Positions 20,445 to 64,000 of a stretch of 64,000 bases of DNA are shown in pieces. The stretch is from assembly GCA_030141605.1 (NCBI GenBank), contig JAQGDQ010000221.1, positions 1-64,000 on the forward strand. The letters run 5' to 3'. This stretch comes from Tubiluchus corallicola. Lineage: Eukaryota > Animalia > Priapulida. The stretch's first letter is position 1; the number at the start of each line of letters is the position of its first letter. The position numbers were made by a program, and so were the translations under genes. The notes beneath the pieces were generated by a model. It made no database searches. It was not told the DNA's origin and saw only the letters and a program-made list of their open reading frames with translations.

Positions 20445-20983
20445 GGTTGGCATCCTTCTGTCTCGGAAGACAATGGAGTGTGCGCCAGGAGAGTCAGTTA
20501 TTGATCACATTGATGGAGCTGCAGCGTCGACTATGGCTGAGCAGTGCGATCCTTGAACGTCTCCAGGGCGTACGCCTGGGAAAGGTGTATGGAGGTCCTG
20601 AGTTGCCCAGACAACAGGAACCCCCTCTCTTCCTCGCTGGTGTAGTCCAAAGGAAAGCGGAGCGCTACGTTTGGCACCAGGTTGGCTGCAGGAGCTGCCG
20701 GAGTCAGTGAGCATGCTGCACTGTCCGCCTTCGGGGCTCCACTCCTGATTTGGAAGGTTTACTCCTCTACACATGGCCGTTGGGTCACTTGACTTCCTCC
20801 GCCCTCTAGCCGTTGGTTGCTTGTGCAGCTCCTCCGCCTAGTGTCGAGATACAGTGTGGGCATCCCGCAAGCCTACAGCGCCTGGTATTCCTAGGCGGTC
20901 ACCCATCCAAGTACTAACCAGTGTTGCTTAACTTCTGTGATCAGACGAGAACCGGTGTTTTCAACGTGATTTGGCCGTAGTCT
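20445..20983 (-). mobile_element. 5S rRNA-headed SINE (SINE3-like), ~540 bp
   Basis: 5S-like head at 20869-20982 runs without a T-run terminator into a ~425-bp GC-rich body; flanked by a 12-bp TSD tgaaaaataatt (20433-20444) / tggaaaataatt (20984-20995). Confidence 0.8.
20869..20982 (-). pseudogene. 5S rRNA-derived sequence with a short internal deletion
   Basis: GACTACGGCCAAATCACGTTGAAAACACCGGTTCTCGTCTGATCACAGAAGTTAAGCAACAC-TGGTTAGTACTTGGATGGGTGACCGCCTAGGAATACCAGGCGCTGTAGGCTT. Confidence 0.9.
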
Positions 20984-45146: not shown

Positions 45147-45771
45147 AGATCATTGCCTTAGCGACTTAACTAAAGCCCTCGGAGTCGGGCAGACGATATT
45201 CGATCAATTACCTGAGAGCGAACAATAAGCGAATCTATAAAATCTAAAATATCAATCAAATCAATTAATTCAAGATCACTCGACACGGCAAAATAACTAT
45301 ACGATCACTTTATCGAATGGAGAACTTGATATAATTAGTACAAAATTAAACTAACTGAGCAGGTGACCATGCGACTGAACTTTTGACTAAACAGCCTGTA
45401 TAAAAAACGTTCTAGCGGCGCTTGGTGGGTGGGACTCTCGGAAGGCGGTATATAGCTCTTTAGAAAGAGCAGGAACTGAGCTACACGGTAATGTGGGTGA
45501 GATTTTAGGACGCCTGTACTAAAAGAAGCTGCAGCGCGTTAATTGGAGGTTCCATTTTCCGCAATTCTCGCTTGGAAAACTGCTGACATTTTTCATTGCT
45601 CTGACGTCATCCCATTGTACTCAGTCTAAAACTTTATCTATCTATTCTATTATATTAATATTCTTGGTATATATATAAGATTCGAGGCTACAGCCCGGAC
45701 GAGGGCACCATTTGCGGCGATCTATACATCAAACGAAAGGTCTCGATCTAGTGTCGTGCCATTGATGGTTA

Positions 45772-45817: not shown

Positions 45818-46478
45818 CTACCTACCTACCTACCTACCTACCTACCTACCTACCTACCTACCTACCTACCTACCTACCTACCTACCTACCTACCTACCTA
45901 CCTACCTACCTACCTACCTACCTACCTACCTACCTACCTACCTACCTACCTACCTACCTACCTACCTACCTACCTACCTACCTACTTACCTACCTACCTA
46001 CCTACCTACCTACCTACCTACCTACCTACCTACCTACCTACCTACCTACCTACCTACCTACCTACCTACCTACCTACCTACCTACCTACCTACCTACCTA
46101 CCTACCTACCTACCTACCTACCTACCTACCTACCTACCTACCTACCTACCTACCTACCTACCTACCTACCTACCTACCTACCTACCTACCTACCTACCTA
46201 CCTACCTACCTACCTACCTACCTACCTACCTACCTACCTACCTACCTACCTACCTACCTACCTACCTACCTACCTACCTACCTACCTGCCTACCTACCTA
46301 CCTACCTGCCTACCTACCTACCTACCTACCTACCTACCTGCCTACCTACCTACCTACCTACCTACCTACCTACCTACCTACCTACCTACCTACCTACCTA
46401 CCTACCTACCTACCTACCTACCTACCTACCTACCTACCTACCTACCTACCTACCTACTTACTTACTTACTTACTTACC
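45772..46478. repeat. (ACTT)n(ACCT)n(ACTT)n microsatellite, ~700 bp
   Basis: Direct inspection. Confidence 0.97.
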
Positions 46479-46483
46479 TTCTC

Positions 46484-46558
46484 AGTCACCCATCCAAGTA
46501 CTAACCCGCCTCGTCGTTGCTTAACTTCGGTGATCAGAGGAGAACCAGTGTCATCAAC
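46484..46558 (-). pseudogene. 5S rRNA internal fragment (box A to box C)
   Basis: GTTGATGACACTGGTTCTCCTCTGATCACCGAAGTTAAGCAACGACGAGGCGGGTTAGTACTTGGATGGGTGAC. Confidence 0.85.
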
Positions 46559-46867
46559 CTGTTTTGAACAACAGGTATCTTCAGCGCCGTAATCGCGTAT
46601 AAGCACCTGCTCGTCATGTACAAGAATTGCAAACTTGCTACATAGGAACACGTAGTCATGCGTATAAATTGTCCTCAAATACCAGCAAAATCCACACTAA
46701 GTTTCGTTTATTAACAATCAGTATGCAAATCAGTAACAACGGTATACAAACATGTTTAATATTAGCCTATATCGATTCGATTTTTTTTACTTTTTCAAGA
46801 ACGGTAGTGAACTAGTTAAAAAAAGACAAAAATTCGGATTTCCGTGATAAGTAATGTAGCTTGTCGC

Positions 46868-47091
46868 CTAGGATTCACAAATATACGGCAGTTTTGCTGT
46901 ATCACACGAGAAGTCATTCCACGTGTTCCCATTTGCCCTCAGGATGGCGCAGCTTTCGCCATCGCCGTAATTATCCGGTTGGCCATCTGCTACGTCCCAA
47001 GAAGTAAAAAGGGCAGGTCGACCTGTTGCAGACCACCTCCAGTCACCCTCCTCGTGTATGTCGGTTAAGCCAATCCAAAAATGCTCACCAG
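46868..47091 (-). CDS. C-type lectin domain, terminal exon (galactose-type QPD/WND); upstream exons not found
   Basis: Acceptor ttttaataaag|CT, open to TAG: GEHFWIGLTDIHEEGDWRWSATGRPALFTSWDVADGQPDNYGDGESCAILRANGNTWNDFSCDTAKLPYICES*; AATAAA at 46707-46712. Not in the ORF track because it has no ATG. Confidence 0.9.
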
Positions 47092-47635
47092 CTTTATTAA
47101 AAACAAAATGTATTTAATATTAAATTTGGTGATTTACCATTATATTTTCATATAATATAACTGTTATTTAACTTTTATACATTCCACAGCAATTATAACG
47201 TACTTTATCACTCCCATGAAACACTAAAATAACAAATATTATCAGTGATTTTTTTCCAAATTTTGACCAAACAGCCTGCGAAAAAACGTTATAGCCGCAC
47301 CTGGTGGGACTCTCGGCAGGAGCTATACGGCTCTTTAGAAAGAGGAGGAACAGGGCTACACGATGATGTCGCCTATATTTTAGGACACGTCCACCAAGAG
47401 GAGTACCGAGGAGTTAATTACATGTTTTATTTTTGGCAATTTTCGCTTGGAAAACTGCTGACGCAAAGCCATTGTTCTGACGTCATCCATTATACTATGT
47501 TTATAACCTTATTTTTAATTCAGTAAAAGCTTCTGGCTTTGTGCTAGGTAAGTAAACAAACACTAGGTAGGATGTTCGCGTATTATTGATTGTACGTGTG
47601 TTTATACGCAAAATTTTTTGCGGGGCCTTTGCTAG

Positions 47636-47875
47636 TCTCTTATATTAATATTCTTGGTATATATATAAGATTCGAGGCTACAGCTTCGACGAGGGCACCA
47701 TTTGTGGTGATCTATATATCAAACGAAAGGTCTCGATCTAGTGTCGTCTCATTGGTTTTTTTTTCGAATGGGGCCCACCACGAGGAACGGGGGGCGAAAA
47801 ACCTCCAAAAATGGCCCTTTTTCGGCCGTTTTTTGCAAAAAGTTATTTGCAAATCTTTTGCGGGGCCTTTGCTAG
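47636..47875 (+). mobile_element. Non-autonomous Helitron-like element, 240-bp minimal unit, joined head-to-tail to the previous unit
   Basis: Starts TCTCTTATATTAATA directly after CTAG; ends GCAAA-tct-TTTGC hairpin, ggggcctttg-CTAG|T. Confidence 0.8.
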
Positions 47876-48925: not shown

Positions 48926-49552
48926 CTGTCATAACCTAACCATCATTTGGATTAACATTTTTATGCAGTTTTGGCTCTTTCATTCGCTTCAGTCCATTGT
49001 CTTGAAGGTCAATATAATTGAACCTCGGACTGTTTGTCAAGTACAACTCCAAATGTTCCAGGTTCTTGCAGCCATGAATGGCAATGCGTTGCAGCTCACT
49101 GAATTCGTAAAACAACTCAGGTTCAATTTTATGCAAATTTTGCAATTCAATCAACCGGAAATTCTTAACTTTGACCACGATATTGCTTTCGCCTAAGCTT
49201 TCCAAATTTGCTCCCCAGAAGCAAATGCTAAGACAGCGACGGTCCTTCCAATTAAAAATCCTGGAGGTAGTATGGTTTCTGAGTACTGGTAAATAGAGAG
49301 ACCGTCCAAAAAGACAGGGAGTGCCTTCTCTGTGGCTACAAGTCGTGTCATGTCGATCTTATGGTTCACCCCGCATGACACGTGACATGTTGTAAGTCCA
49401 GTTGTCTTGTTGCATTCTTCTACGCTGGGTTCAAGTTCACATGGCTGGTTAGGAGCGGCTTCTACGAATGTTGTAGAAAATTCCTTGCAAACTGATTTTA
49501 AGAGAAAAGTTGCTACTACTTGCAAGATATGCCTTTTTAACAAAGCCAACAT
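48926..49552 (-). pseudogene. Divergent paralog of the signal peptide-LRR exon, disrupted
   Basis: Two overlapping ORFs join at a G4 run (49213-49216). Matches to the intact gene: CHVSCG~CKFQCG, YQYSETILPPGFL~PYYKSDAIPTNWL, PKLHKNV~PRLHENV. In-frame TAG at 48936-48938 just before a phase-1 donor ACAG|gtaggt. Confidence 0.75.
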
Positions 49553-49713
49553 GTTGCTTTCTAAATTACTTTATACACGAAAAGATTGGCAGCTTGGATA
49601 CAGAAAATCATTGCCGAACAATGTGAATATGTAATTATGTTAATGCGAGTTTTTTTTAAATATTCTATTCGGGGAAACAATGAAATAACAACAACGAGAC
49701 AATGGGTTCTTGT

Positions 49714-50981
49714 GTCACGTTCAACGCAGAGACTTGTCTCGCAATAGAAGTTGCCAAGTCGCTCACACGTTGAAACAAGTTGTGAAAGAAGTTGCCAAGC
49801 TGTCCACACGTTGAAACAAGTTGCGAGAAAAGTTGCCAAACCGTCCACACGTTGCAGCAAGTTGTGAGAGAAGTTGCCTAGCCGTTCACACGTTGCAGCA
49901 AGTTGTGAAAGAAGTTGCCAAGCCGTTCACACGTTGCAGCAAGTTGTGAAAGAAGTTGCCAAGCCGTTCACACGTTGCAGCAAGTTGTGGAAGAAGTTGC
50001 CAAATCGTTAACATGTTGCAACAAGTTGTGAGAGAAGTTGCCAAACCGTCCACGCGTTGCAGCAAGTTGTGAAACAAGTTGCCAAACCGTCCACACGTTG
50101 CAGCAAGTTGTGAGAGAAGTTGCCTAGCCGTTCACACGTTGCAGCAAGTTGTGAAAGAAGTTGCCAAGCCGTTCACACGTTGCAGCAAGTTGTGGAAGAA
50201 GTTGCCAAATCGTTAACATGTTGCAACAAGTTGTGAGAGAAGTTGCCAAACCGTCCACGCGTTGCAGCAAGTTGTGAAACAAGTTGCCAGGCCGTTCACA
50301 CGTTGCAGCAAGTTGTGAAAGAAGTTGCCAAGCTGTTCACATGTTGCAGCAAGTTGTGGATTGCCAAGCCGTCCACACGTTCCAACAAGTTGCGAGAGAA
50401 GTTGCCAAATCGTTCACATGTTGCAACAAGTTGTGAGAGAAGTTGGTAAAACGTTCACACGTTGCAACAAGTTTTGAGAGAAGTTGCCCAACCGTTCACA
50501 CGTTTCAACAAGTTGCGAGAAAAATTACCAAGCCGTCCACACGTTGCAACTCGTTGCGAGAGAAGTTGCCAAACCGTCCACACGTTGCAGCAAGTTGTGA
50601 AAGAAGTTGCCTAGCCGTTCACACGTTGCAGCAAGTTGTGAAAGAAGTTGCCAGGCCGTTCACACGTTGCAGCAAGTTGTGAAAGAAGTTGCCAAGCCGT
50701 TCACATGTTGCAGTAAGTTGTGGAAGGAATTGCCAAGCCGTCCACACGTTCCAACAAGTCGCGAGAAAAGTTGCTAAACCGTCCACACGTTGCAACAAGT
50801 TGCGAGAGAAGTTGCCAAACCGTTCACACGTTGCAACAAGTTGCGACAGAAGTTGCCAAACCATTCGCACGTTGCAACTCGTTGCGAGAGAAGTTGCCAC
50901 ACCGTTCACACGTTGCAACTGTACTCCCAGAAAGAAGTTGCGCAACAAGTTGTGAGACAAGTCTCTCCCTCTGAACGCGCT
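49714..50981. repeat. 41-bp satellite (~29 copies) enclosed by inverted repeats (MITE-like)
   Basis: Unit gaagttgccaagccgttcacacgttgcagcaagttgtgaaa; flanks agagacttgtctcgcaa / ttgtgagacaagtctct. Confidence 0.9.
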
Positions 50982-52906
50982 ATAATATAGTGATTGTAAT
51001 ATCAGAACCAAACTGAAGCTGTTAATTTGGTTAGAATTTGGTCAGATTACTTCTAGAGTAGGACCATCCCAATACAACAAATAACCCCTAAATCACAGCG
51101 ATGTGTTTGCAATCAAGATATGTGTTCGAAGTGGTGATCCGTAATAAATTCTTAGGAAAAAAGTCACAGGAAGTCACAATTTTGGTGAGGAAAATGTTAC
51201 AGAAAAACTAACAATTTTGGTTAGGAAAGAGTCACAGAAAAAAGTCACAGTTTTGGCTAGGAAAAAGTCAAGAAAAAGTAACAATTTTGGCTAGAAAAAG
51301 TCACAGAAAAAGTGACAATTTTGTCGTGAACTGATTCACGAGTTTGTTTATGAACTTTATAAACTTTAGCAACATTACAACTTTACAGCAAGTTAGACTA
51401 CAGTGAATCATTTTCTCACCTGACTGGTTTCTGATATGCATTACCCAAGGTTAACCAGTTTCAACTGATTTCAACTATTTTTAATCTAGTAGTCACAACG
51501 TAGAGTGCAGAAAAGACAGTCAATAATGAAGTGTTTGTGCCACTAAAGGAGTTAGGTTTATGAGTTTGGTTGCTACATATGTTGACAAAAGCCTTTTTCA
51601 CAAATTCTGGGTAGAAAAGAATGTTAGGTAATCAAACAAAGTATTCAAGTCATTCATAATTTATTTAGCGATCATAAAAACGGCAAATATTTTACAGGAA
51701 GACAGCAAGATTTTTCATATACTACCCCATTTTCATGTCCCATAAAAAGTGTACGTTTTAAACCAATTAATACAGTAAAAGCGCTTCTGGTAATTAAATT
51801 ATAGATCAAAAACGTAATTAAGGCGGGCGAGCCCAACTATTAATGGCATCACATCAAACTAACAAATTTTTCAATAGCAAAAATACTCCACGAGGGTGTT
51901 GCACTAAAACTAGGCAAGTTATAAGATGAAAATTCCAATTTCAAATTTAGTGCTGTGCTCACGCATGAGCTGTCGAACGTGCGTAGTTCGTCAGAACTAA
52001 CACATCTGTACTGAGAGGTACAGGACCTGTTTTTTGTGCAATGCATTTCCAAAATGCAGGCGCTAGAGCCCGTCTAACTAACGAATGGCGAAGTGCATGT
52101 TGTAGCGAAGAGCTAGTGGCGCCAACACTAAATTACATTGGTGTGGTAATGATCTTGCACATAAGTCATTTTTGAAAAAATAGTAGAGTGTTTTGACCTT
52201 CAGTTTTTAACATTGGGTCCGGTTTTGCTTTAAATCAGATATTAACTGACAATACATTTGTAACAGTGCGTTCAGACTAGCCAGTTTATGTCGCGAGTTT
52301 TCACACTGACAGTAAACTCACAAGTGTGAACTGCTTTGCGAGTTACTTTTAGCAAGAAATTGCAAGCTCTCCTAACAGTTGCTATCAGGAGAGTTTCAAG
52401 ACCTAAAGACATCCTAGGCTGATAGTTCTGTCCCACCCATGTAAATTTATAGTTGCTAATGTAATAAGCAGATTAAACAATTACTTGTGGTGTGTTAGAA
52501 ACACTTTTAACATAATTTCTACGTGGTCATTATTAATTACGTGTATCTGCATAGCACTTATATTCAGCAGGCTGCGCAACTGCTTGTTGTGTGATACCTT
52601 CCACCCGTTCGTTATGTAGCAATTATCTAAAGTTGCACTCAGTAACTGTCTGCAGTGTGTTATGAAATGCGCCCTTTACATGAATAAAAAAGTATGCACT
52701 TTTCTCGGGGAGAATAAGAATAACAATATGGGTAGTGGCATGAACTCCTGAGCATAGCAGTGCACGAATATTTTATTTCAGAGGCGCAATAAAACACATA
52801 ATTATAGCACACGGTTACATCACTACACACATTTTAGTTTAAATTAATTTTGTTTCACTCATAGTGATTTTTCTCTTGATGTTCAATGAAATGCGTCAGA
52901 TCAATT

Positions 52907-53025
52907 TTATTTTAAAGTATTTTTCTCTAGCCTTTCAACTGCTCTCCGTTGTTTCACTACTGTACCTTTGGATTCTCCTTGTATAGTTTTTTCACTGTCT
53001 GATTCTTCACTGTCTTTGCTAAAGC
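52907..53025 (-). CDS. Candidate alternative tail exon 9 (distal), ends ...RLEKNTLK*
   Basis: Phase-1 acceptor, open frame GFSKDSEESDSEKTIQGESKGTVVKQRRAVERLEKNTLK*. Confidence 0.5.
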
Positions 53026-53130
53026 CTGCAAAATGATAACAACAAATATTGTAAACATGTTTAGTAGACTAGTGTAAGTTGCCAAATGCGTACATGTATG
53101 AGTCATACAGTTAGTTTGCTAGCTACCACT

Positions 53131-53327
53131 TTAGTTAAAATTAAATTTTGTTTCACTTCTTGTGATTTTTCTCTTGATGTTTAATGAGATACATCGGTCA
53201 CAGATCAATTTTATCAGAGTATTTTTCTCTAGCCTTTCAACTGCTCTCCGTTGTTTCACAACTGTACCTTCGAATTCTCCTTGTTCAGTTTTTTCACTGT
53301 CTGATTCTTCACCATCTTCACTAAAGC
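53131..53327 (-). CDS. Candidate alternative tail exon 8 (long class), ends ...KITRSETKFNFN*
   Basis: TAG acceptor, open frame of 197 nt. Confidence 0.45.
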
Positions 53328-53513
53328 CTACAAAATGATAACAACAGATCTTGTAAACATGTTTAGTAGACTAGTGTCAACTGTCAATTGCATACATGTA
53401 TAAGCCATACAGTTAGCTAGCTAGCTAGCCACTTTAGTTAAAATTAAACTTTGTTTCACTCCTTGTGATTTTTCTCTTGATGTTTAATGAAATACGTCAT
53501 TCGCAGATCAATT

Positions 53514-53632
53514 TTATCTTAAAGTACATTTCTCTAGCGTTTCCACTGCTCTCCGTTGTTTCACTACTGTACCTTTGGATTCTCCTTGTTCAGTTTTTCC
53601 ACTGTCTGATTCTCCACTATCTTCACTAAAGC
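53514..53632 (-). CDS. Candidate alternative tail exon 7, ends ...ETLEKCTLR*
   Basis: CAG acceptor, open frame. Confidence 0.45.
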
Positions 53633-53804
53633 CTGCAAAATGATAACAACAAATATTGTAAACATGTTTAGTAGACTAGTGTCAGTTGCCAATTGCATAC
53701 ATGTATAGCCATACAGTTAGTTTGCTAGCTAACCACTTTAGTTAAAATTAAATTTTGTTTCACTCCTTGTGACTTTTCTCTTTATGTTCAATGAAATACG
53801 TCAT

Positions 53805-53935
53805 TCACACATCACTTTTATCTTCTAGTATTTTCTCTAGCCTTTCAACTGCTCTCCGTTGTTTCACTATTGTACCTTTGGATTCTCCTTGTTCAGTTTT
53901 TTCACTGTCTGATTCTCCACTATCTTCACTAAAGC
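53805..53935 (-). CDS. Candidate alternative tail exon 6, ends ...LEDKSDV*
   Basis: CAG acceptor, open frame. Confidence 0.45.
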
Positions 53936-54040
53936 CTGCAAAATGATAACAACAAATATTGTAAACATGTTTGGTAGACTAGTGTCAGTTGCCAATTGCA
54001 TACATGTATGAGTCATACAGTTAGTTTGCTAGCTACCACT

Positions 54041-54237
54041 TTAGTTAAAATTAAATTTTGTTTCACTTTTTGTGATTTTTCTCTTGATGTTTAATGAGAT
54101 ACATCGGTCACAGATCAATTTTATCAGAGTATTTTTCTCTAGCCTTTCAACTGCTCTCCGTTGTTTCACAACTGTACCTTCGAATTCTCCTTGTTCAGTT
54201 TTTTCACTGTCTGATTCTTCACCATCTTCACTAAAGC
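54041..54237 (-). CDS. Candidate alternative tail exon 5 (long class), ends ...KITKSETKFNFN*
   Basis: TAG acceptor; GFSEDGEESDSEKTEQGEFEGTVVKQRRAVERLEKNTLIKLICDRCISLNIKRKITKSETKFNFN*. Confidence 0.45.
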
Positions 54238-54423
54238 CTACAAAATGATAACAACAGATCTTGTAAACATGTTTAGTAGACTAGTGTCAACTGTCAATTG
54301 CATACATGTATAAGTCATACAGTTAGCTAGCTAGCTAGCCACTTTAGTTAAAATTAAACTTTGTTTCACTCCTTGTGATTTTTCTCTTGATGTTTAATGA
54401 AATACGTCATTCGCAGATCAATT

Positions 54424-54542
54424 TTATCTTAAAGTACATTTCTCTAGCGTTTCAACTGCTCTCCGTTGTTTCACTACTGTACCTTTGGATTCTCCTTGTT
54501 CAGTTTTTCCACTGTCTGATTCTCCACTATCTTCACTAAAGC
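54424..54542 (-). CDS. Candidate alternative tail exon 4, ends ...ETLEKCTLR*
   Basis: CAG acceptor; GFSEDSGESDSGKTEQGESKGTVVKQRRAVETLEKCTLR*. Confidence 0.45.
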
Positions 54543-54714
54543 CTGCAAAATGATAACAACAAATATTGTAAACATGTTTAGTAGACTAGTGTCAGTTGCC
54601 AATTGCATACATGTATAGCCATACAGTTAGTTTGCTAGCTAACCACTTTAGTTAAAATTAAATTTTGTTTCACTCCTTGTGACTTTTCTCTTTATGTTCA
54701 ATGAAATACGTCAT

Positions 54715-54845
54715 TCACACATCACTTTTATCTTCTAGTATTTTCTCTAGCCTTTCAACTGCTCTCCGTTGTTTCACTATTGTACCTTTGGATTCTCCTT
54801 GTTTAGTTTTTTCACTGTCTGATTCTCCACTATCTTCACTAAAGC
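54715..54845 (-). CDS. Candidate alternative tail exon 3, ends ...LEDKSDV*
   Basis: CAG acceptor, open frame. Confidence 0.45.
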
Positions 54846-55018
54846 CTGCAAAATGATAACAACAAATATTGTAAACATGTTTGGTAGACTAGTGTCAGTT
54901 GCCAATTGCATACATGTATGAGCCATACAGTTAGTTTGCTAGCTAACCACTTTAGTTAAAATTAAATTTTGTTTCACTCCTTGTGACTTTTCTCTTTATG
55001 TTCAATGAAATACGTCAT

Positions 55019-55149
55019 TCACACATCACTTTTATCTTCTAGTATTTTCTCTAGCCTTTCAACTGCTCTCCGTTGTTTCACTATTGTACCTTTGGATTCT
55101 CCTTGTTCAGTTTTTTCACTGTCTGATTCTCTACTATCTTCACTAAAGC
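55019..55149 (-). CDS. Candidate alternative tail exon 2, ends ...LEDKSDV*
   Basis: CAG acceptor; GFSEDSRESDSEKTEQGESKGTIVKQRRAVERLEKILEDKSDV*. Confidence 0.5.
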
Positions 55150-55322
55150 CTGCAAAATGATAACAACAAATATTGTAAACATGTTTGGTAGACTAGTGTC
55201 AGTTGCCAATTGCATACATGTATGAGCCATACAGTTAGTTTGCTAGCTAACCACTTTAGTTAAAATTAAATTTTGTTTCACTCCTTGTGACTTTTCTCTT
55301 TATGTTCAATGAAATACGTCAT

Positions 55323-55453
55323 TCACACATCACTTTTATCTTCTAGTATTTTCTCTAGCCTTTCAACTGCTCTCCATTGTTTCACAACTGTACCTTCGAA
55401 TTCTCCTTGTTCAGTTATTTCGCTGTCTGATTCTCCACTATCTTCACTAGAGC
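55323..55453 (-). CDS. LRR-EGF receptor, coding exon 3 (proximal cytoplasmic tail)
   Basis: Phase-1 acceptor matches donor ACGG|gtatgc; GSSEDSGESDSEITEQGEFEGTVVKQWRAVERLEKILEDKSDV*; the same intron and exon are conserved in the paralog at 62.8-63.2 kb. Confidence 0.8.
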
Positions 55454-55764
55454 CTGCAAAATGATAACAACAAATATTGTAAACATATTTAGTAGACTAG
55501 TGTCAATTGTCAATTGCATACATGTATAAGCCACACAGTTAGCTGGCTAGCTAACCAGCTAGTTAGTTGGCATTAGGCCACTCGCTCGCCTGTTTGTTCG
55601 TTTGTTCGTCTGCTAGGTAGTTATGTCGAAGTAGTTGTCGTAGTCTGCCCTTCATCCTCGATTGTGAAAATGATTCACTCTGAATAGCATACGCGCTCTG
55701 ATTAAACCAACGTGGTAACCAGACAACAGCGACTCAACTATTTTAAAGGAAAAACAAAGCATAC

Positions 55765-58188
55765 CCGTGATCGCCTTCCGGTGCTTTTGTTTTTGACATC
55801 TAAAAATTACATAAGTTGCTAGCAAAAACAATACAATCAGAGAAACTGCTGAGCCCACAAGTTTCCCGTTGCTAATTAAGTTTTCTTTGTCTTCAGTGTT
55901 AAATTGACATTGCGATCCATTATTTCCACTCAAGCATGTACACGTGTATTTATTAACAAAATCAAAACAATTGCCTCCATTCTGGCACGGATTAGAAGCA
56001 CACTCATTGTAATTTGTTTGACACTGGTTTCCCACATAACCTTGTATACAGTGACAATTGTAATTATTTATACCATGCAGACATGTGCCACCATTTTTGC
56101 ATGGATTGCTTGCACACTTGGTGTTATTCAGATTACACACATACTCCCCAAGTTCATTTATACAGACGCATGTGTAATACCCATCTTCATTAACACATAT
56201 TCCACCGTCTTTACAAGGATTATCAAGCAGGCATTCGTTAACATCAGTTTCACAAGTTTTTCCAGTGAATCCTGCTGTGCAGTCACACGTGTAATTGTTT
56301 ACCTTGTCTACACACGTTCCGCCATGTTTGCATGGCTTGTGCAGTTGCTGGCATTCATTAATATCAGTTTCACAAGTTCTTCCAGTGAATCCTGCAGTGC
56401 ATTCACACGTGTAATTGTTTACCTTGTCTACACACATTCCGCCATGTTTGCATGGCTGGTGCAGTTGCTGGCATTCATTAATATCAGTTTCACAAGTTCT
56501 TCCAGTGAATCCTGCAGTGCATTCACACGTGTAATTGTTTACCTTGTCTACACACGTTCCGCCATGTTTGCATGGCTGGTGCAGTTGCTGGCATTCATTA
56601 ATATCAGTTTCACAAGTTCTTCCAGTGAATCCTGCAGAGCAGTCACACCTGAAATCGTTTATCAGGTCCACGCAGGTTGCACCATTCTTGCACGGCTGAC
56701 GCAGATCTTCACATTCATTAATATTTATACTGCATTTCTCGCCTGTGTATCCGGGATCACACATGCATATCGCTGTTGGGTTACCAGGTGCACACGTTCC
56801 ATGACCACATGAACTTGGTTTACACAATTCAACTTCACAAGTGGTTCCATTGTAGTCATCAGTACAGTTACAAGTAAAACTGTTCACACCGTCTATGCAT
56901 GTCCCACCATTTCTGCATGGATTGCTTTCACACTCATCGATGTTTTGCTGACACAGCTGCCCCTCAAATCCAGACGCACAGTTACATTTGAAAGAGCCAA
57001 ATGAATTAACACATGTTCCACCATTTTTACAAGGATTAGCAAGCTGGCATTCATTAACATCCGTTTCACAAGTTCTTCCAGTGAATCCTGCAGTGCAGTC
57101 ACACGTGTAATTGTTTACCTTGTCTACACACGTTCCGCCATGTTTGCATGGCTTGTGCACCTGCTGGCATTCATTAATATCAGTTTCACAAGTTCTTCCA
57201 GTGAATCCTGCAGAGCAGTCACACCTGAAGTCGTTTATCAGGTCCACGCAGGTTGCACCATTCTTGCACGGCTGACGCAGATCTTCACATTCATTAATAT
57301 TTATACTGCATTTCTCACCTGTGTATCCGGGATCACACGTGCATTTCGCTGATGGGTTACCAGGTAAACACATTCCATGACCGTTGCACGATCTTGGGTT
57401 ACACCCTTCAACTTCACATGTAGCTCCACAGTAAACACCGGCACAGTTACAAGTAAAACTGTTCACACCGTCTATGCATGTCCCACCATTTCTACATGGA
57501 CTGCTTTCACACTCATCGATGTTTTGCTGACACAGCTGCCCCTCATATCCAGACGCACAGTTACATTTAAAAGAGCCAAATGAATTAACACATGTTCCAC
57601 CGTTTTTACAAGGATTAGCAAGCTGGCATTCGTTAATATCCGTTTCACAAGTTCTTCCAGTGAATCCTGCAGAGCAGTCACACCTGAAATCGTTTATCAG
57701 GTCCACGCAGGTTGCGCCATTGTTGCACGGCTGACGCAGATCTTCACATTCATTAATATTTATACTGCATCTCTGACCTGTGTATCCAGGATAACACCTG
57801 CATTTCGCTGATGGGTTACTAGGCAAACACATTCCATGACCGTTGCACAATCTTGGTTTACACCCTTCAACTTCACATGTGGCTCCAAAGTAAACACCGG
57901 CACAGTTACAAGTAAAACTGTTCACACCATCTATGCATGTACCACCATTTTTGCACGGATTTGACTTACATTCATCTATAGGTATGCAAAAAGGTACCTC
58001 ATCACCCGGGGGACAAGATGTACACTTAAAATCATCTATCTGCAAATTGGAATTGTGGGTCTTTCCTCGATTGTGGTCAGGATGGTAACAAGTATATTCA
58101 ATACTCCCGCCAGGTCTGATATATTTGTCCAGAAAAGTTGAATTAGCCACCCATCTTAGATAGCAGTTACATGTTAGCTGCTTGTTTC
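55765..58188 (-). CDS. LRR-EGF receptor, coding exon 2: LRRCT, 18 EGF-like repeats (mostly Ca-binding type), TM helix, basic stop-transfer
   Basis: Acceptor ttttgcag|GAAAC giving GNKQLTCNCYLRW; 2424 nt, phase 1-1; TM LVGSAVSLIVLFLLATYVIF then RCQKQKHRK; donor gtatgc. Confidence 0.95.
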
Positions 58189-58931: not shown

Positions 58932-59604
58932 CTTTCAGGTTCACTCTCAAATTACGAACATTTTCATGCAGCCGAGGTGTTACGACATACTTTAGCAGAT
59001 TATTACCGGAAATTTGAAGGTTTGATAAAAAGGAGGACTTTTCCATTTTAACGTCAACTGTCTCAAGTTGAGGATTCGTCGTTATGATGAGGTCACGAAG
59101 CTGCTGACAATTTGAAAAGTCCAGAGAAAGTGAAGTAAGTTTCCACAGCAGCTTCAACTTCAAATATGTCATGGTGTTTTGATCTGCAAATGCATCATGA
59201 TGAATAGATTCTAGTTTCTTAGCATAATCAATTTCGAGATGTTCGACTTTTCCCCCAAATGTGTCTCTATCAATACTAACAATGCTAGTTAGCGCAAATT
59301 GAATCCATTTTAATTTTTTTCCTTGCAACCAGTTTGTAGGTATCGCATCACTTTTATAATAAGGCAGTTGGAGTATATCTCCATCTACAACGTTTCTGTC
59401 CAATTCACGCAAATCACTTTCTTTCAAATTGAGATGAGCATATATTTGTCCACACTGAAACTTGCAGTTAACGCCTCCTGCGATCTGTTTAATGCTGGAA
59501 CACTTGCCGCTTAAAAATATTTTAGGCTCTAGGTCTCGGCACCTAGCTTCTGTATCAAGAAACGTAATTAAGGCACTCAGAAGTAAAAAAAACGTGGTCC
59601 TCAT
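58932..59604 (-). CDS. LRR-EGF receptor, coding exon 1: signal peptide, Cys N-cap, divergent leucine-rich repeats
   Basis: ATG at 59604; MRTTFFLLLSALITFLDTEA; LRR-like segments (LESIHHDAF, LRDLIITTNPQL, LSNLQISGNNLL); donor AAAG|gtatgt, phase 1, completing VNLKG-N across the junction. Confidence 0.9.
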
Positions 59605-61164
59605 CAATATTTTCAGGGTTTTTTGGCGTTCTATTGATGTGTTAAGATATCACATTAAGAATGCATCACGGGTAATTATGAAGAAATTCATTGCGTCATA
59701 ATTACCATCAATGTAATTATCATTGTTATTCGTACCACATTCTTTATCCTAAACAATTAGAACTCCACCATTGTTATAGTACTATAGTAGGCTCACTTTG
59801 TAGAAAACTATCCTGGATCAAGACAATGAACTTCCGGGTAGATTACACTGTCGAGATCAAGAAAATTACAAAACTCTAAAAATTCTGCTGTTCCAAAGCC
59901 ATGCAGCATTTGTTTCCTAAAAAACTAAAGTAAACTAAAGAAAAAAACTAGACAATGTTGGGTCTATTCCTTTGCCATTGTCAGTATGAAAGCGTATAGA
60001 GGTCACTACAGCCTGATGTCTGACACATGTACTGCTGTTACTGAGTTAGTTAGTTATTTCTTTTGTGCACGTATATTTTGTTCCTTATTTTTATTAGTGC
60101 TGATAAGAAACTCCGTAAAGTGTAATTTTTGCGTTTTATTTTATGAGACTTAAATGACATGCTACAACACGTATATGTTATTAGTTTACAGACATTAACT
60201 CAGTATAACATTTGTAACTAAAATTAACACTTGTAGTTGAGTAATCAGTTACACAACGATACTGAAATGGACAATTATGAAGCACAATATCAAGTCCACC
60301 ATGTCATCTTGGAGTTCGACCCCCTGAGTCGAATTCAGGCCACTGTTATCACTTAAACCGAAAAAACGTAACAAAGAAATTTGAAAAAGCTATAGGTAAA
60401 GCATGAAGTTAATTCGTACTATAGCTGCATTTCAGCTGTAATCCAGACGAGGGTGAAGCTGCCATTGACTTAAAAATTATCATGTAACTGGCTCCGTTCT
60501 AGCCGTCTTGACCTTGTCTTGCTACTGCACAAAACGTTTCAGACACAGAGGGTAAGGCTAACTTTGTGCAAATCCTCATCAGTTTAAATCAAGTCGCATA
60601 CCAGTCACGACACTCCTGGCCAAGTCCTGTGACAGTGGGAGTCCCAAATTTTAATTTAAAGTTTGCACACCAGGAGCGAATATTGTATTTTTCTATTTTG
60701 CAGTAACTTGGATCATTTTTGTTTTTGTTTCAGCCCCTAGACGTGATTTTTCCACATTAAAGACAATGCTTGAGTTAGATCTTATTTTCGAAGCGAAGTT
60801 TTAGTGAAACGCTTCTTTGGAATGCACAAAGATAAGATATGTCTCACAACAGAGCAAAATTGCAGCAGCAGTTTATTAGAAATTCAAATAAACAGATTGA
60901 TGTTAGGCTGAAACTTTATACCTGCATCTAGTGGTACAAAATTTGTTATCTTCGTGTAAATAAGAGTAAATTGTTCGATCAAAGCTATTTTGTTGAAACT
61001 ACTAGCTTCTAACTTATTGTACACTTATTCATAAGACGTTAACCTTAGCCATCTAAATAGCATATACAATATGAATATGGGTAGCGGCATGTGACTCCTG
61101 ATCGTATCAGCGCACGAATATTTTATTTCATAGTAGAGTAGAGTATTTTAACCTACAGTTTGAC

Positions 61165-61762
61165 TATGGGTCCGGCTTTGCTTTAAATCAGATATTAACT
61201 GACAATACATTTGTAACAGCGCATTCAGACAAGCCAGTTTATGTCGCGAATTTTCACACTGACAGTAAACTCACAAGTGTGAACTGCTTTGCGAGTTGCT
61301 TTTAGCAAGAAATTGCAAGCTTTCCTAACAGTTGCTATAATGGGAATTTCAAGACTTTACGACAGCTAGGCTGATAATTCTGCCCCGCTAATGTGAATTT
61401 ATAGTTGGCAATGTAATAAGCACATTGAACAATTACTTGTGTTGTGTTAGACACACTTTTAACATAATTTCTACGTGGTCATTATTAATTACATGTATTT
61501 GCATATCGCTTATATTCACCAGCCTGCACAAATGCTTGTTGCGTGATACCTTTCACCTGCTCGTTATGTAGCACTTATGCAAAAGCTGCTCTCACTAACT
61601 GTCGCGATGTGTTATAAAGTGCGCCCTTCACATGAATATGAAAGTATGCGCATTTTTCGGGAAGAATAAGAAAAATAATAAGAATGTGGGTAGTGGCATG
61701 AATTCTTAAGCATATCAGCACATGAATATTTTATTTCTGGGTCGTAATAATACACATAATTA
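61165..61762. repeat. Paralogous 3' flank, duplicate of ~52213-52805
   Basis: tgggtccgg.tttgctttaaatcagatattaactgacaatacatttgtaacag... colinear in both places. Confidence 0.9.
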
Positions 61763-62816
61763 CATAAAATACTTCTTTAACAGATGAAGAGATGAAGCAG
61801 TTTAGTTTTGCATATGTACAGCTGTGAAATCGGCACAGGTAACATAGTTATGTTTAACGCATACTTGCCGCTTATTGGTTATTTTAAAAATGCATAAACA
61901 CAGGTGATTCCTACAGGTCGTGGAGCAGTGAAATTCTCGATCTAGCTAGACAGTTGTTACTTGATTTTTGAGCATATCGTAACGTGTGGCAAACACGTCT
62001 AAAGTCTGTCCACACTGCTCAGTTCAAACATCTCTAACGAGATTGAGATGTTTTGATTTATACTATTGTGGAACTTCCTCAAATGATATAAACGAGTAGA
62101 AACGGCTTGTAATATGGTCAATTGAATACGGAACTTAATCTAGACCTGTATTGGTGAGACTCCCAGCAAGTTGGCAGACGGAGTCAAGCAAGCTAGACCC
62201 ACGAGGAAGTTGTAGCGACCATGTCCGGTGATGAGGCGAAGAGGTGGCGATCCGTGAGGTGAGCTGCAAGCGGCTGTCGGAACTTGGTGGAATCGAATGA
62301 TGGATGTTATGGTATGAATTGACAAGGCATGGAATGGAATGGAATGTTGCAGATACGTTTACAAAGTCTAGTGATGAAACCATTGTCATGGAATGGAAAT
62401 AAAATGGTGACGCAGTTAATGTCAAGACTAGAACTCCGACGTGGTAAACCCGGTACCGGTATGCTTGTAGCCTCGTACACACATGTACAGTTTTGCTTAA
62501 ATGATCTGTGCACAGTTTTTTTCATGCATATTATATTTGTAATTAAATAAAGCAATTGAATTTAATGCCCAGTTTGTTTAGACTAATTGAGATTGTCAAT
62601 CAGTAATTTTTTTTCTAAATATTACATCACAACAGTGACGACGTTACACGTTAGGGAAATAACACAGAACCCATAACACGTGCTTTAGGAAGGACCGTCA
62701 CATACATCACTACACACACTTTAGTTAAAATTAAATTTTATTTCACTTCTTTTGATGTTCAATAAAATACGTCATTCACCAATCACTTTTATCTTAAAGT
62801 ATTTTTCTGTAGCCTT

Positions 62817-62905
62817 TCAACTGCTCTCGGTTGTTTCACTACTACCTTCGGATTCTCCTTGTTCAGTTATTCCACTTTCTGATTCTCCACTATCTTCACT
62901 AGAGC
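62817..62905 (-). CDS. Paralog 2, cytoplasmic-tail exon (single copy)
   Basis: ttttgtag|GC; GSSEDSGESESGITEQGESEGSSETTESS*; AATAAA at 62737-62742. Confidence 0.8.
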
Positions 62906-63197
62906 CTACAAAATGATAACAACAAACATTGAAACAAACATCTAGTAGTGTCAATTGTCAATTGCATACATGTATAAGCCAACAGTTAGCTAGCTAACTA
63001 GCCAGTCAGTTAGTTAGTTGGCAATTAGGCCACTTGCTCTCCTGTTTGTTCATTTGCTAGGTAATTACGTCTAGGTAGTTAGTCTGCCCTCCGTCCTCAA
63101 ATGTGAAAATGATTCACTTTGAATAGCATATGCTCTCTTTGGAAACCAAAGTGGTAACTGGTAACCAGACAACAGCAACTAGACTATTTAAGCATAC

Positions 63198-63344
63198 CCG
63201 TGATCGCCTTCTGGCGTCTTTGTTTTTGCCATCTAAAAATTACATAAATTGCTAGCAAAGACAACACAAACAGAGCAACTGAAACTGCTGAGCCCAAAAC
63301 TGTCGAGTTGCTGATTGACTTCTTTTGGTCTTCAGCCTTCAGTA
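63198..63344 (-). CDS. Paralog 2, transmembrane exon; upstream exons probably beyond the window
   Basis: cattttcag|TACTG acceptor, 147 nt phase 1-1, LKAEDQKKSISNSTVLGSAVSVALFVLSLLAIYVIFRWQKQRRQKAIT, donor ACGG|gtatgc identical to the main gene. Confidence 0.88.
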
Positions 63345-64000
63345 CTGAAAATGATTGAGTCAACATTGAAATTACTTGCAGAATATTTAAGCAACTACAA
63401 CAGACACAATTTGGGATTAGCATTAAATGATTTTTAAGAATCATTTTTAATATAATTGATTTTATTTTAACAGTTGATGGAAAAATTTAGTCACACAATT
63501 TGCATGTTAAGTTGAGCAAACGTCCTTTAATTTATACGAACACGTATCGGGCCTGATTACAAATTATGGTTTTCATGATAATCGCCACAGTGTACGGTAT
63601 GGTTGCAGTTTCGTTTTAAACTCTGAGGCTTGAAAAAGCTAGATGACACTAATGGATGTCCACCATCCATTGAAAGGTATCATTATTCCTTTTCTTGTTA
63701 AGCCGTTTTACTTTATATATATTGTAATTACTGTTATGTGTATTTTTAGATTGTTTGAAGTATCTACCATTGATACCTTTAATATCATTGTGATACTTTT
63801 CTTTTTCATCAACAATAGATGGTGACAATATTTTTTATCATCCATAAAAATGTCATTGTAGTTTAGCCTAAGGTATATATTGGCCAATGTTGAACTATGA
63901 AAATACTGAAAACCGAATATTTTGGAAACAGCATTTGTCATATTCAGCATTGACCTAAACTAGTGGAGAAACAATTAGCTTATGAGTATAACTAAAATGG

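Follow-up and report, generated by a model that had tools for sequence, protein, structure and literature searches.

The predicted last exon of a receptor gene with leucine-rich repeats (LRR), EGF repeats and a transmembrane helix in Tubiluchus corallicola is present in nine tandem copies. These copies change as freely as the surrounding non-coding DNA, and they are therefore likely leftovers of duplication rather than selectable signalling tails. The gene lies on the minus strand of contig JAQGDQ010000221.1 (assembly GCA_030141605.1), of which a stretch of 64,000 nt, called the window here, was analysed. We favour, with somewhat better than even confidence, an unselected amplification of the last exon by local duplication and unequal crossover, in a gene whose message would be spliced mainly to the nearest copy. 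The original prediction had kept a neutral amplification with the proximal copy in use as its fallback, and this fallback is the best fit.

Two exons precede the array. Exon 1 (58932..59604, minus strand) contains the ATG, a hydrophobic N-terminus (predicted signal peptide) and LRRs within 224 open codons, and it ends with a phase-1 GT donor; Pfam finds LRR_8 (E 1.1e-5) and LRR_5 (E 4.2e-5) in it, neither of which reaches its curated cut-off. Exon 2 (55765..58188, minus strand; 807 open codons) encodes the LRR C-terminal cap, 16-18 EGF repeats (16 stretches by Pfam, EGF E 3.7e-109; 18 by cysteine pattern), a transmembrane helix starting at 55861 (hydropathy 2.48) and a basic juxtamembrane stretch, and it ends at 55765 in phase 1 with its donor GT at 55764. 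This EGF exon is itself internally duplicated, the same kind of duplication as in the tail array. Continuity of phase and motif predicts that these two exons are spliced together. We also considered whether a broken exon lies between them, from 58930 to 58190, and dropped the idea, because a direct join of exons 1 and 2 keeps the phase and yields the complete LRR cap. The product would have about 1075 residues if it ended in the 43-residue tail of the first unit. By Pfam and hydropathy, it is a receptor with a signal peptide, LRRs and a single transmembrane helix, and without a TIR domain; the unit-1 tail matches no Pfam family. No further ORF of at least 120 codons was found between the array and a 41-bp minisatellite. 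Tandem repeats make up about 20% of the window, and the receptor gene belongs to a tandem cluster with a fast-evolving paralog.

Homology searches gave generic results. Protein searches returned no match among 2752 candidates for exon 1 (limited to longer proteins), 15 for the transmembrane region and 5 for the unit-1 tail, which is a weak negative. HMMER, run with the LRR exon against 1.84 billion representatives, gave 16 generic LRR matches; six of these were looked up, and both named ones are plant proteins, while no EGF domain occurred in the eight LRR matches that were scanned. In the ESM Atlas, recognition stayed below threshold, and the clusters returned were eukaryotic LRR ones of a generic kind. 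There were no matches in a PDB sequence search, in metagenome contigs searched for the acceptor/exon pattern, or in Rfam at 52000-56000. HyLRR proteins carry EGF domains. By architecture, the receptor can be likened to Hydra HyLRR-2 and an Amphimedon LRR/Ig/EGF protein, which have an LRR ectodomain and no TIR in the accessible part of PMC6043800, with EGF in the sponge protein.

Behind this intact gene, units of 302-305 bp follow each other head to tail; TRF reports 9.0 copies with a period of 304 at 52833-55557 (92% matches). What looks like a 303-bp satellite had been read in the original prediction as nine last-exon copies, each with the same pyrimidine-rich YAG acceptor in phase 1, and this reading is borne out. 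The acceptor motif on the minus strand is the same in all nine units (seven CAG and two TAG; pyrimidine fraction 0.71 in each), every acceptor fits phase 1 of the donor at 55764 behind the exon end 55765, and every unit is open in that frame. The remaining two phases hit a stop after 2 or 12-23 residues, and every unit, if read through, ends in a stop.

All units lie on the minus strand. Unit 1, the proximal one (55254..55557), comprises the intron end with its acceptor and an exon starting at 55453, whose stop ends at 55323 and whose 43 residues end in KSDV. The same length and ending are found in unit 2 (54950..55253; exon from 55149, stop ending at 55019), which is 99.3% identical to units 3 and 6, in unit 3 (54646..54949; exon from 54845, stop ending at 54715), which opens a three-unit higher-order repeat, and in unit 6 (53736..54038; exon from 53935, stop ending at 53805). 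Unit 4 (54343..54645; exon from 54542, stop ending at 54424) has 39 residues with a CTLR end and is 99.7% identical to unit 7 (53433..53735; exon from 53632, stop ending at 53514), whose 39-residue peptide is the same. The two TAG acceptors belong to unit 5 (54039..54342; exon from 54237, stop ending at 54041), with 65 residues ending in FNFN, and unit 8 (53129..53432; exon from 53327, stop ending at 53131), also with 65 residues; they are 99.3% identical, and their peptides differ by one residue. Unit 9, the distal one (52833..53128; exon from 53025, stop ending at 52907), has 39 residues with an NTLK end and is the sole unit with AATAAA. The tails thus have four kinds of C-terminal end, contain no tyrosine in any of the nine, and are nearly redundant, those of units 4 and 7 being identical and those of units 2, 3 and 6 lying 1-2 residues apart. 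As the original prediction had noted, the frame-changing indels among the units fall near the C-terminus, at exon nt about 103 and 111.

No signal of purifying selection on the copies was detected. Pairwise diversity among the nine units is flat, at 0.070 in the intron, 0.074 in exon nt 1-60, 0.077 in exon nt 61-131 and 0.076 in the UTR, and variable columns number 25/124 in coding versus 26/142 in non-coding positions (p 0.76). The pN/pS among units is 0.94 (33 codons; 5 synonymous of 19 distinct changes), compared with 0.25 for the control, the most diverged EGF duplicate of the same gene (119 codons, p 9e-5). An omega of 0.25 is rejected for the tail (p 0.024) and one of 0.5 is not (p 0.31), the power being low; among the eight overlapping EGF control pairs, four had non-significant pN/pS values of 0.52-0.76. 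The comparison of exon and intron divergence and of dN/dS, which had been proposed as a check on the tails, gives no sign of their selective maintenance. Likewise, the open frames and intact acceptors had been taken as a sign of function, and they are no more than chance expects at such divergence: the chance of no stop in 19 changes is P 0.33, and that of an untouched acceptor AG is P 0.65. Variable columns in the acceptor region (2/22) do not differ from those elsewhere (51/266; p 0.39). Speaking against the neutral reading, the deepest splits between units reach 12%, a depth comparable to the divergence from the paralog (9-15%), and the nine acceptors are intact nonetheless. The cytoplasmic part is wholly fast-evolving, so an omega near 1 cannot prove that the distal copies are unused; the single-copy juxtamembrane stretch differs from the paralog by five non-synonymous changes and one synonymous change.

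A neighbouring paralog with a single copy of the last exon, as predicted, is located upstream. Its 3' end (62737..63330, minus strand) includes the end of the transmembrane exon, a donor at 63197, one last exon from 62905 with 29 residues, and AATAAA at 62742, and it shares 85-90% identity with the array gene in the exon end, intron and downstream flank. The tail encoded by this one exon stays uniformly S/E/G/T up to its end, with AATAAA behind it, and the array is probably derived, as had been proposed. Relative to the paralog, 2 nt are inserted at exon nt 62 (codon 21) in each of the nine units, a feature absent from the original prediction. The last 9 residues of the paralog are 100% S/E/D/G/T and its first 20 residues 90%, against 35% in the last 23 residues of unit 1, and the paralog-like ending with its stop is still legible in the shifted frame in eight of the nine units. 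The +2 shift at codon 21 is common to all copies, so their C-termini are likely read in a different frame and from what used to be UTR, and the differences between tail ends likely stem from frameshifts into this sequence. Unit 1 is the closest to the paralog both in the intron (8/92 differences, versus 10-17 in the other units) and in codons 2-20 (3 non-synonymous differences versus 4-9), which suggests that its 5' part stayed in place. This closeness was also considered as a sign of selection, an idea that was dropped because unit 1 is equally the closest in the intron.

The copy relationships suggest more than one round of duplication. Five unit types, 5-12% apart, can be distinguished, and a recent block duplication is visible in the unit pairs 3/6, 4/7 and 5/8, at 99.3-99.7% identity. 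Judged by its variable columns, unit 1 is a mosaic: it agrees with units 2, 3 and 6 starting at exon nt 88 and not before. We infer that a short shared motif was the point at which a 303-bp segment, made up of the intron end, the exon and the first part of the UTR, was duplicated in head-to-tail orientation, and that subsequent crossovers likely copied single units and one block of three. Units 2-9 would then lie inside a 3' UTR of 2.4-2.5 kb, or past a weak poly(A) site, and the distal acceptors would give minor leakage at most.

The poly(A) signals bear on this outcome. AATAAA occurs in one of the nine units, at 52911 in unit 9, where it overlaps the stop; units 1-8 have none, with AACAAA at the position of the paralog's AATAAA. 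Among variants, ATTAAA is found in units 4, 5, 7 and 8 and CATAAA in units 1, 2, 3 and 6, each expected 0.3-0.5 times per unit from composition alone. The next AATAAA behind the array (52772..52777, minus strand), a candidate poly(A) signal, is 2546 nt past the stop of unit 1. The available text of PMC4666398 reports that terminal exons in human cells can lose out to an acceptor further downstream, and that mutation of the poly(A) signal strengthens this effect. By analogy, the array, with acceptors behind a weakened terminal exon, would match this situation, and this counts against splicing mainly to the proximal copy.

A modest possibility, not raised in the original prediction, is that the units are spliced in series. 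Unit 1 contains a donor-like AAG/GTACA (55388..55396, minus strand), a candidate splice site 60 nt into the exon, which recurs at 55089, 54785, 54482, 54177, 53875, 53572, 53267 and 52965. If used, it would turn units 1-8 into symmetric internal exons of 20 codons, with unit 9 as the last exon, and any subset of units would stay in frame. The receptor would then gain a repeat tail, acidic and rich in Ser, with a maximum of about 200 residues. The site lies at exactly 60 nt in all nine units, in phase 1-1 and 242-245 nt from the next acceptor, and of the 163 GT sites in the array these nine pair best with U1; nine copies of one site are, however, not nine observations, and each matches the consensus at 5/9 positions without a +5 G, compared with 6-7 matches in the other donors of the gene. 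The indels and the +2 shift all lie downstream of the site, AATAAA is missing from units 1-8 and present in unit 9, and codons 2-20 carry a net charge of -47 when summed over the nine units; yet these codons have a pN/pS of 1.15, with three charge changes of the E-to-K type among 11 non-synonymous ones. A precedent exists in the portion of PMC4666398 at hand, where a downstream acceptor woke a cryptic 5' site in the terminal exon in 40/107 human cases, with 19 more mixed. Against this stands the paralog, whose terminal exon holds an equal site with no further acceptor copy behind it, and the A/C-AGGTA word has a frequency of 0.5 per kb in the window. It is quite unlikely that the latent in-frame donor and the loss of poly(A) signals have made a combinatorial cassette, in which any subset of eight 20-residue acidic, Ser-rich modules would be followed by any of the four ends, including the one with a PDZ-binding motif, in tails of 39 to about 200 residues. 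If that were the case, the tails of one LRR-EGF receptor would vary in charge, phosphorylation sites and scaffold binding.

The original prediction put forward a regulated choice, in which the units are alternative last exons picked singly and a constant ectodomain is joined to varied signalling tails. The nine intact phase-1 acceptors and open frames are compatible with such a design, and so is the variety of C-terminal ends, which are of four kinds; one of these, KSDV (units 1, 2, 3 and 6), fits the class I PDZ-binding pattern. KSDV was dropped as evidence of function, since it was likely born of a second frameshift and the pattern has a background of 4.6% (207/4504 stop-terminated reads). 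The same design occurs in Drosophila pip and PGRP-LC, and Botryllus FcoR genes exchange tail motifs by splicing, so far as the excerpt of PMC12582321 goes. Regulated choice is nevertheless decidedly improbable here: there is no selection signal, units 1-8 have no canonical poly(A) signal, and the tails are nearly redundant, free of tyrosine and likely to end in frameshifted former UTR. Docking/selector pairing of the PGRP-LC type was not seen in one test, with unit 3 only, in which the 5' part of the intron paired no better than with shuffles (-74.1 versus -70.0 +/- 6.6 kcal/mol; 26/100 shuffles as low; longest complementary word 7 nt versus 8.1), nor did unit 3 fold better than shuffles (-50.3 versus -54.7 +/- 4.5). 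Selectable tails as a designed system find no backing in selection, canonical poly(A) signals or the one docking test.

It is very unlikely that the array represents maintained allelic variation, with unequal crossover altering the type or number of the proximal unit so that individuals differ. The mosaic units, the recent block duplication (0.3-0.7% divergence) and the tandem cluster with a fast-evolving paralog agree with it; the analysis covered a single haplotype, repeats cross over with or without selection, and the position of unit 1 nearest the paralog suggests that its 5' part stayed put. An assembly artefact is hardly credible: units at 99.3-99.7% identity could be miscounted, which makes the exact count of nine less sure than the array itself, but the five unit types differ by 5-12%, and a 274-nt contig of run X1 spans the junction of units 4 and 5 (54189-54462) without a difference or gap, which places this junction in read data, though not as independent support, as X1 is maybe the source sample. 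Of nine contigs from run X2, presumably RNA, none falls on the array, a result given no weight in either direction. With its coverage of introns and intergenic DNA, run X1 is probably genomic, and no splice of the receptor gene was present among the 15 of its 32 joints that were listed. Its summed depth over the array corresponds to about 12 units relative to the depth of exon 1, a depth that is no copy number.

If the amplification is neutral, the array is a clear snapshot of how the raw material for alternative last exons arises, as satellite-like repeats each of which has stayed a spliceable exon. It also calls for caution, as open frames and intact acceptors in young duplicates do not prove use. 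Serial splicing or the combinatorial cassette, if true, would show how a terminal exon can become, in a single step, a repeat tail of variable length on a lineage-specific receptor.

Tandem last-exon arrays are a kind already known, and all nine units, as homologous last-exon copies with an acceptor in the donor phase, belong to it. The "inverse design" of the original prediction is therefore not new: Drosophila pip has 8-10 tandem 3' cassettes (PMC6191721, PMC9013439, in the sections available), and PMC8373072, in the part accessible, counts 77/236 human C-terminal tandem-exon substitution events, with NECTIN2 and CapZ beta as examples. In these partial texts and that of PMC3228551, the isoforms of tandem terminal exons come from alternative poly(A) use, some steered by competing RNA pairings. 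As described there, pip, PGRP-LC, CG42235 and the human substitutions share with the array a constant 5' part and tandem homologous last exon(s) with their own acceptors; unlike pip, PGRP-LC and the human cases, the array has copies that are 88-99.7% identical, gives no selection signal, lacks AATAAA in eight of nine units, and consists of putative exons. Dscam1 and the protocadherins, the analogy drawn originally, resemble it as duplicated-exon arrays in a cell-surface receptor gene. In the available parts of PMC6191721 and PMC8373072, the Dscam1 arrays are internal, with constant exons behind them, and variable 5' protocadherin exons join constant 3' exons, whereas the copies here are terminal and stop-bearing. 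All units end in a stop, which separates them from mutually exclusive internal exons of the Dscam1 type (in serial splicing they would be internal but not mutually exclusive), and the array forms the 3' end of the gene, after its one transmembrane exon, not among variable 5' exons with their own promoters. A further comparison is with the unannotated tandem exon duplications in or near UTRs, which are frequent in UTRs according to the text available of PMC9013439; these too are exon copies behind or beside an annotated exon, but the array has nine copies, a three-unit higher-order repeat and a full acceptor in each. Intergenic Alu exonisation, as far as the excerpt of PMC4666398 describes it, likewise places an intact acceptor behind a last exon with a weak poly(A) signal and can lead to skipping of that exon or to a cryptic donor inside it, the same two outcomes that compete as readings of the array. 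There the acceptor comes from a transposon, whereas the array reuses the acceptor of the gene itself in eight additional copies, and its cryptic donor would preserve the frame.

The apparent 303-bp satellite consists of nine head-to-tail copies of a last exon with phase-compatible acceptors, behind a gene whose paralog has one copy, as the original prediction had correctly described. A tandem-repeat search of the window placed the array at 52833-55557 (9.0 copies, period 304, matches 92%). The gene is modelled as exon 1 (59604-58932 (-)), with a predicted signal peptide and LRRs, exon 2 (58188-55765 (-)), and a last exon, with phase 1 at both junctions; the modelled receptor has 1032 residues ahead of its tail. 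The LRR cap, 16-18 EGF repeats, and the transmembrane helix all lie within the single 2.4-kb exon 2. Each unit, numbered along the gene from 1 (proximal) to 9 (distal), contains roughly 105 nt from the end of the intron, an acceptor (CAG in seven, TAG in two), the exon, and some 70 nt of UTR, and the phase-1 reading is open in all nine, over 39-65 residues. The paralog, located upstream, with its last exon starting at 62905 (-), is 85-90% identical to the array gene across the exon end, intron, and downstream flank; about 940 additional bases separate its last exon from the shared flank. Dispersed repeats, with more copies within the window, occupy the downstream flanks of both genes (51696-52804 and 61137-61762), where the depth of X1, a sequencing run placed on the window, is in the thousands.

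The receptor is similar in layout to TIR-less LRR receptors described in Hydra and a sponge (PMC6043800, PMC1896004); protein and PDB sequence searches turned up no homology. A diverged LRR-exon-like frame at 48939-49561 (-), with a hydrophobic start and one frameshift near 49210, bears a weak resemblance to exon 1 (22% across 72 residues, E 0.004). It has no EGF exon behind it and is possibly a relic third family member. X1 contigs with many differences at the paralog end (62759-64000) and in the EGF exon (55971-56058) hint at further members elsewhere in the genome. Also present are a minisatellite at 49746-50917 (41-bp unit, 28.7 copies, matches 86%), a lone exon-like piece at 46873-47089 (-) matching the C-terminal portion of a C-type lectin domain (Lectin_C in Pfam, E 5.7e-12), and dispersed 5S rRNA-like copies at 20870-20982 (-) and 46460-46575 (-) (Rfam, 73.9 and 45.1 bits). 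The second copy continues into a 700-bp four-base repeat, as would a 5S-derived retroposon or pseudogene; together with the lectin fragment, it is bracketed by related copies (45378-45764 and 47258-47754, 75-92% identity) of a several-hundred-base element.

The locus is prone to duplication, and tandem repeats make up about 20% of the window (46 merged arrays). Divergence between units ranges from 0.3 to 12.3%. Identities of 99.3-99.7% in the pairs 3/6, 4/7, and 5/8 mark a three-unit block duplication, units 2 and 3 share 99.3% identity, and unit 1 is a mosaic that agrees with units 2, 3, and 6 solely from exon nt 88 on. Unit-unit junctions join two similar motifs, one from the UTR and one from the intron, a structure consistent with duplication at short shared sequence. 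The internal duplications of the EGF exon (55765-58188 (-); identity 92-97%) are nested, with offsets of 40, 153, and 192/193 codons, and thus ectodomain length, too, is altered by tandem duplication.

All nine units are two bases longer than the paralog at exon nt 62. The paralog tail (29 residues) is rich in S/E/D/G/T throughout (90% and 100%) and is followed by AATAAA; its type of ending and stop is still present, in a shifted frame, in eight of nine units, while unit 1, in the frame as read, reaches 35%. The paralog thus appears to represent the older state, in an unrooted comparison of the two genes, and array residues past position 21 would derive from another frame and former UTR. Further indels at about nt 103 and 111 produce four end types: KSDV (four units), CTLR (two), FNFN (two), and NTLK (one). 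The KSDV end matches the class I PDZ-binding pattern, also matched by 207 of 4504 background reads. Tyrosine-motif switching, as reported for Botryllus FcoR (PMC12582321), is excluded because none of the nine unit tails contains tyrosine. In place of the paralog's AATAAA, the units have AACAAA; downstream of unit 1, AATAAA appears first in unit 9 (52911) and next at 52777.

The exon-versus-intron and dN/dS comparison proposed with the original prediction gave no sign of selection on the units. Pairwise diversity was 0.070 for the intron part, 0.074 and 0.077 for exon nt 1-60 and 61-131, respectively, and 0.076 past the exon, and tail pN/pS was 0.94 over 33 codons. Among 19 distinct tail changes, 5 were synonymous, with about 4 expected under neutrality; a tail omega of 0.25 was rejected (p 0.024) and one of 0.5 was not (p 0.31). 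Eight overlapping pairs of EGF duplicates from the same gene served as a control and gave 0.15-0.76, including 0.25 for the most diverged pair (p 9e-5) and 0.52-0.76, not significant, for four. Open frames and intact acceptors, previously read as signs of use, match chance expectation: P is 0.33 for zero stops among the 19 changes and 0.65 for AG intact in all acceptors, and the acceptor region is no more conserved than the rest of the unit (p 0.39). This result should not be over-read: compared with the paralog, the single-copy juxtamembrane stretch shows five non-synonymous changes and one synonymous change, so constraint on the cytoplasmic part may be weak regardless of the copy used. The array is real and tidy, and most likely unselected.

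We rank highest, and consider somewhat more likely than not, a reading in which donor 55764 would splice mainly to the nearest acceptor, 311 nt away, with units 2-9 carried along as passengers. Second, though unlikely, is a serial chain, in which an in-unit donor-like site would join each unit to the next unit's acceptor. AAG/GTACA lies exactly 60 nt into every unit, which would define a symmetric phase 1-1 exon and a 242-245 nt intron; these nine sites are the top U1-pairing sites among 163 GT sites in the array, every indel falls downstream of them, and AATAAA occurs only in the last unit. There is also human precedent: with a downstream acceptor, the terminal exon was skipped in 48 cases, a cryptic internal donor was used in 40, and both occurred in 19, outcomes raised by poly(A)-signal mutation (PMC4666398). 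However, the +60 site matches the consensus at 5 of 9 positions, compared with 6-7 for the remaining donors of the gene; an equal site also sits within the terminal exon of the single-copy paralog; the nine sites are copies of one and count as a single observation; and pN/pS across the codons of the chain modules is 1.15. The combinatorial form of the chain, joining any subset of units in frame, is improbable. Regulated choice among last exons is improbable as well, RNA pairing as a selector of units having failed in the single test run, and maintained allelic tail variation is quite improbable. An artefactual array is hardly credible; one contig of X1, a probably genomic run possibly from the source sample, crosses the unit 4/5 junction without difference.

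The design had been put forward as the inverse of variable ectodomains; a constant front with tandem last exons is already described: Drosophila pip carries 8-10 tandem 3' cassettes and CG42235 five to seven, and three major 3' isoforms come from PGRP-LC (PMC6191721, PMC9013439). In mod(mdg4), more than 30 variable 3' exons are spliced to common exons (PMC6237743), and among 236 human tandem-exon substitutions, 77 affect the C-terminus (PMC8373072). Terminal-exon clusters of this sort have been assigned to the multiple poly(A)-site class rather than to exclusive exons of the Dscam type (PMC3228551). Searches of the open-access literature yielded no report of this gene or of a last-exon array in an LRR-EGF receptor. 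The array matches the tandem last-exon cassettes in anatomy but fails the selection test; its working as a cassette would be potential at best, and it should not be counted among the functional members of that group.
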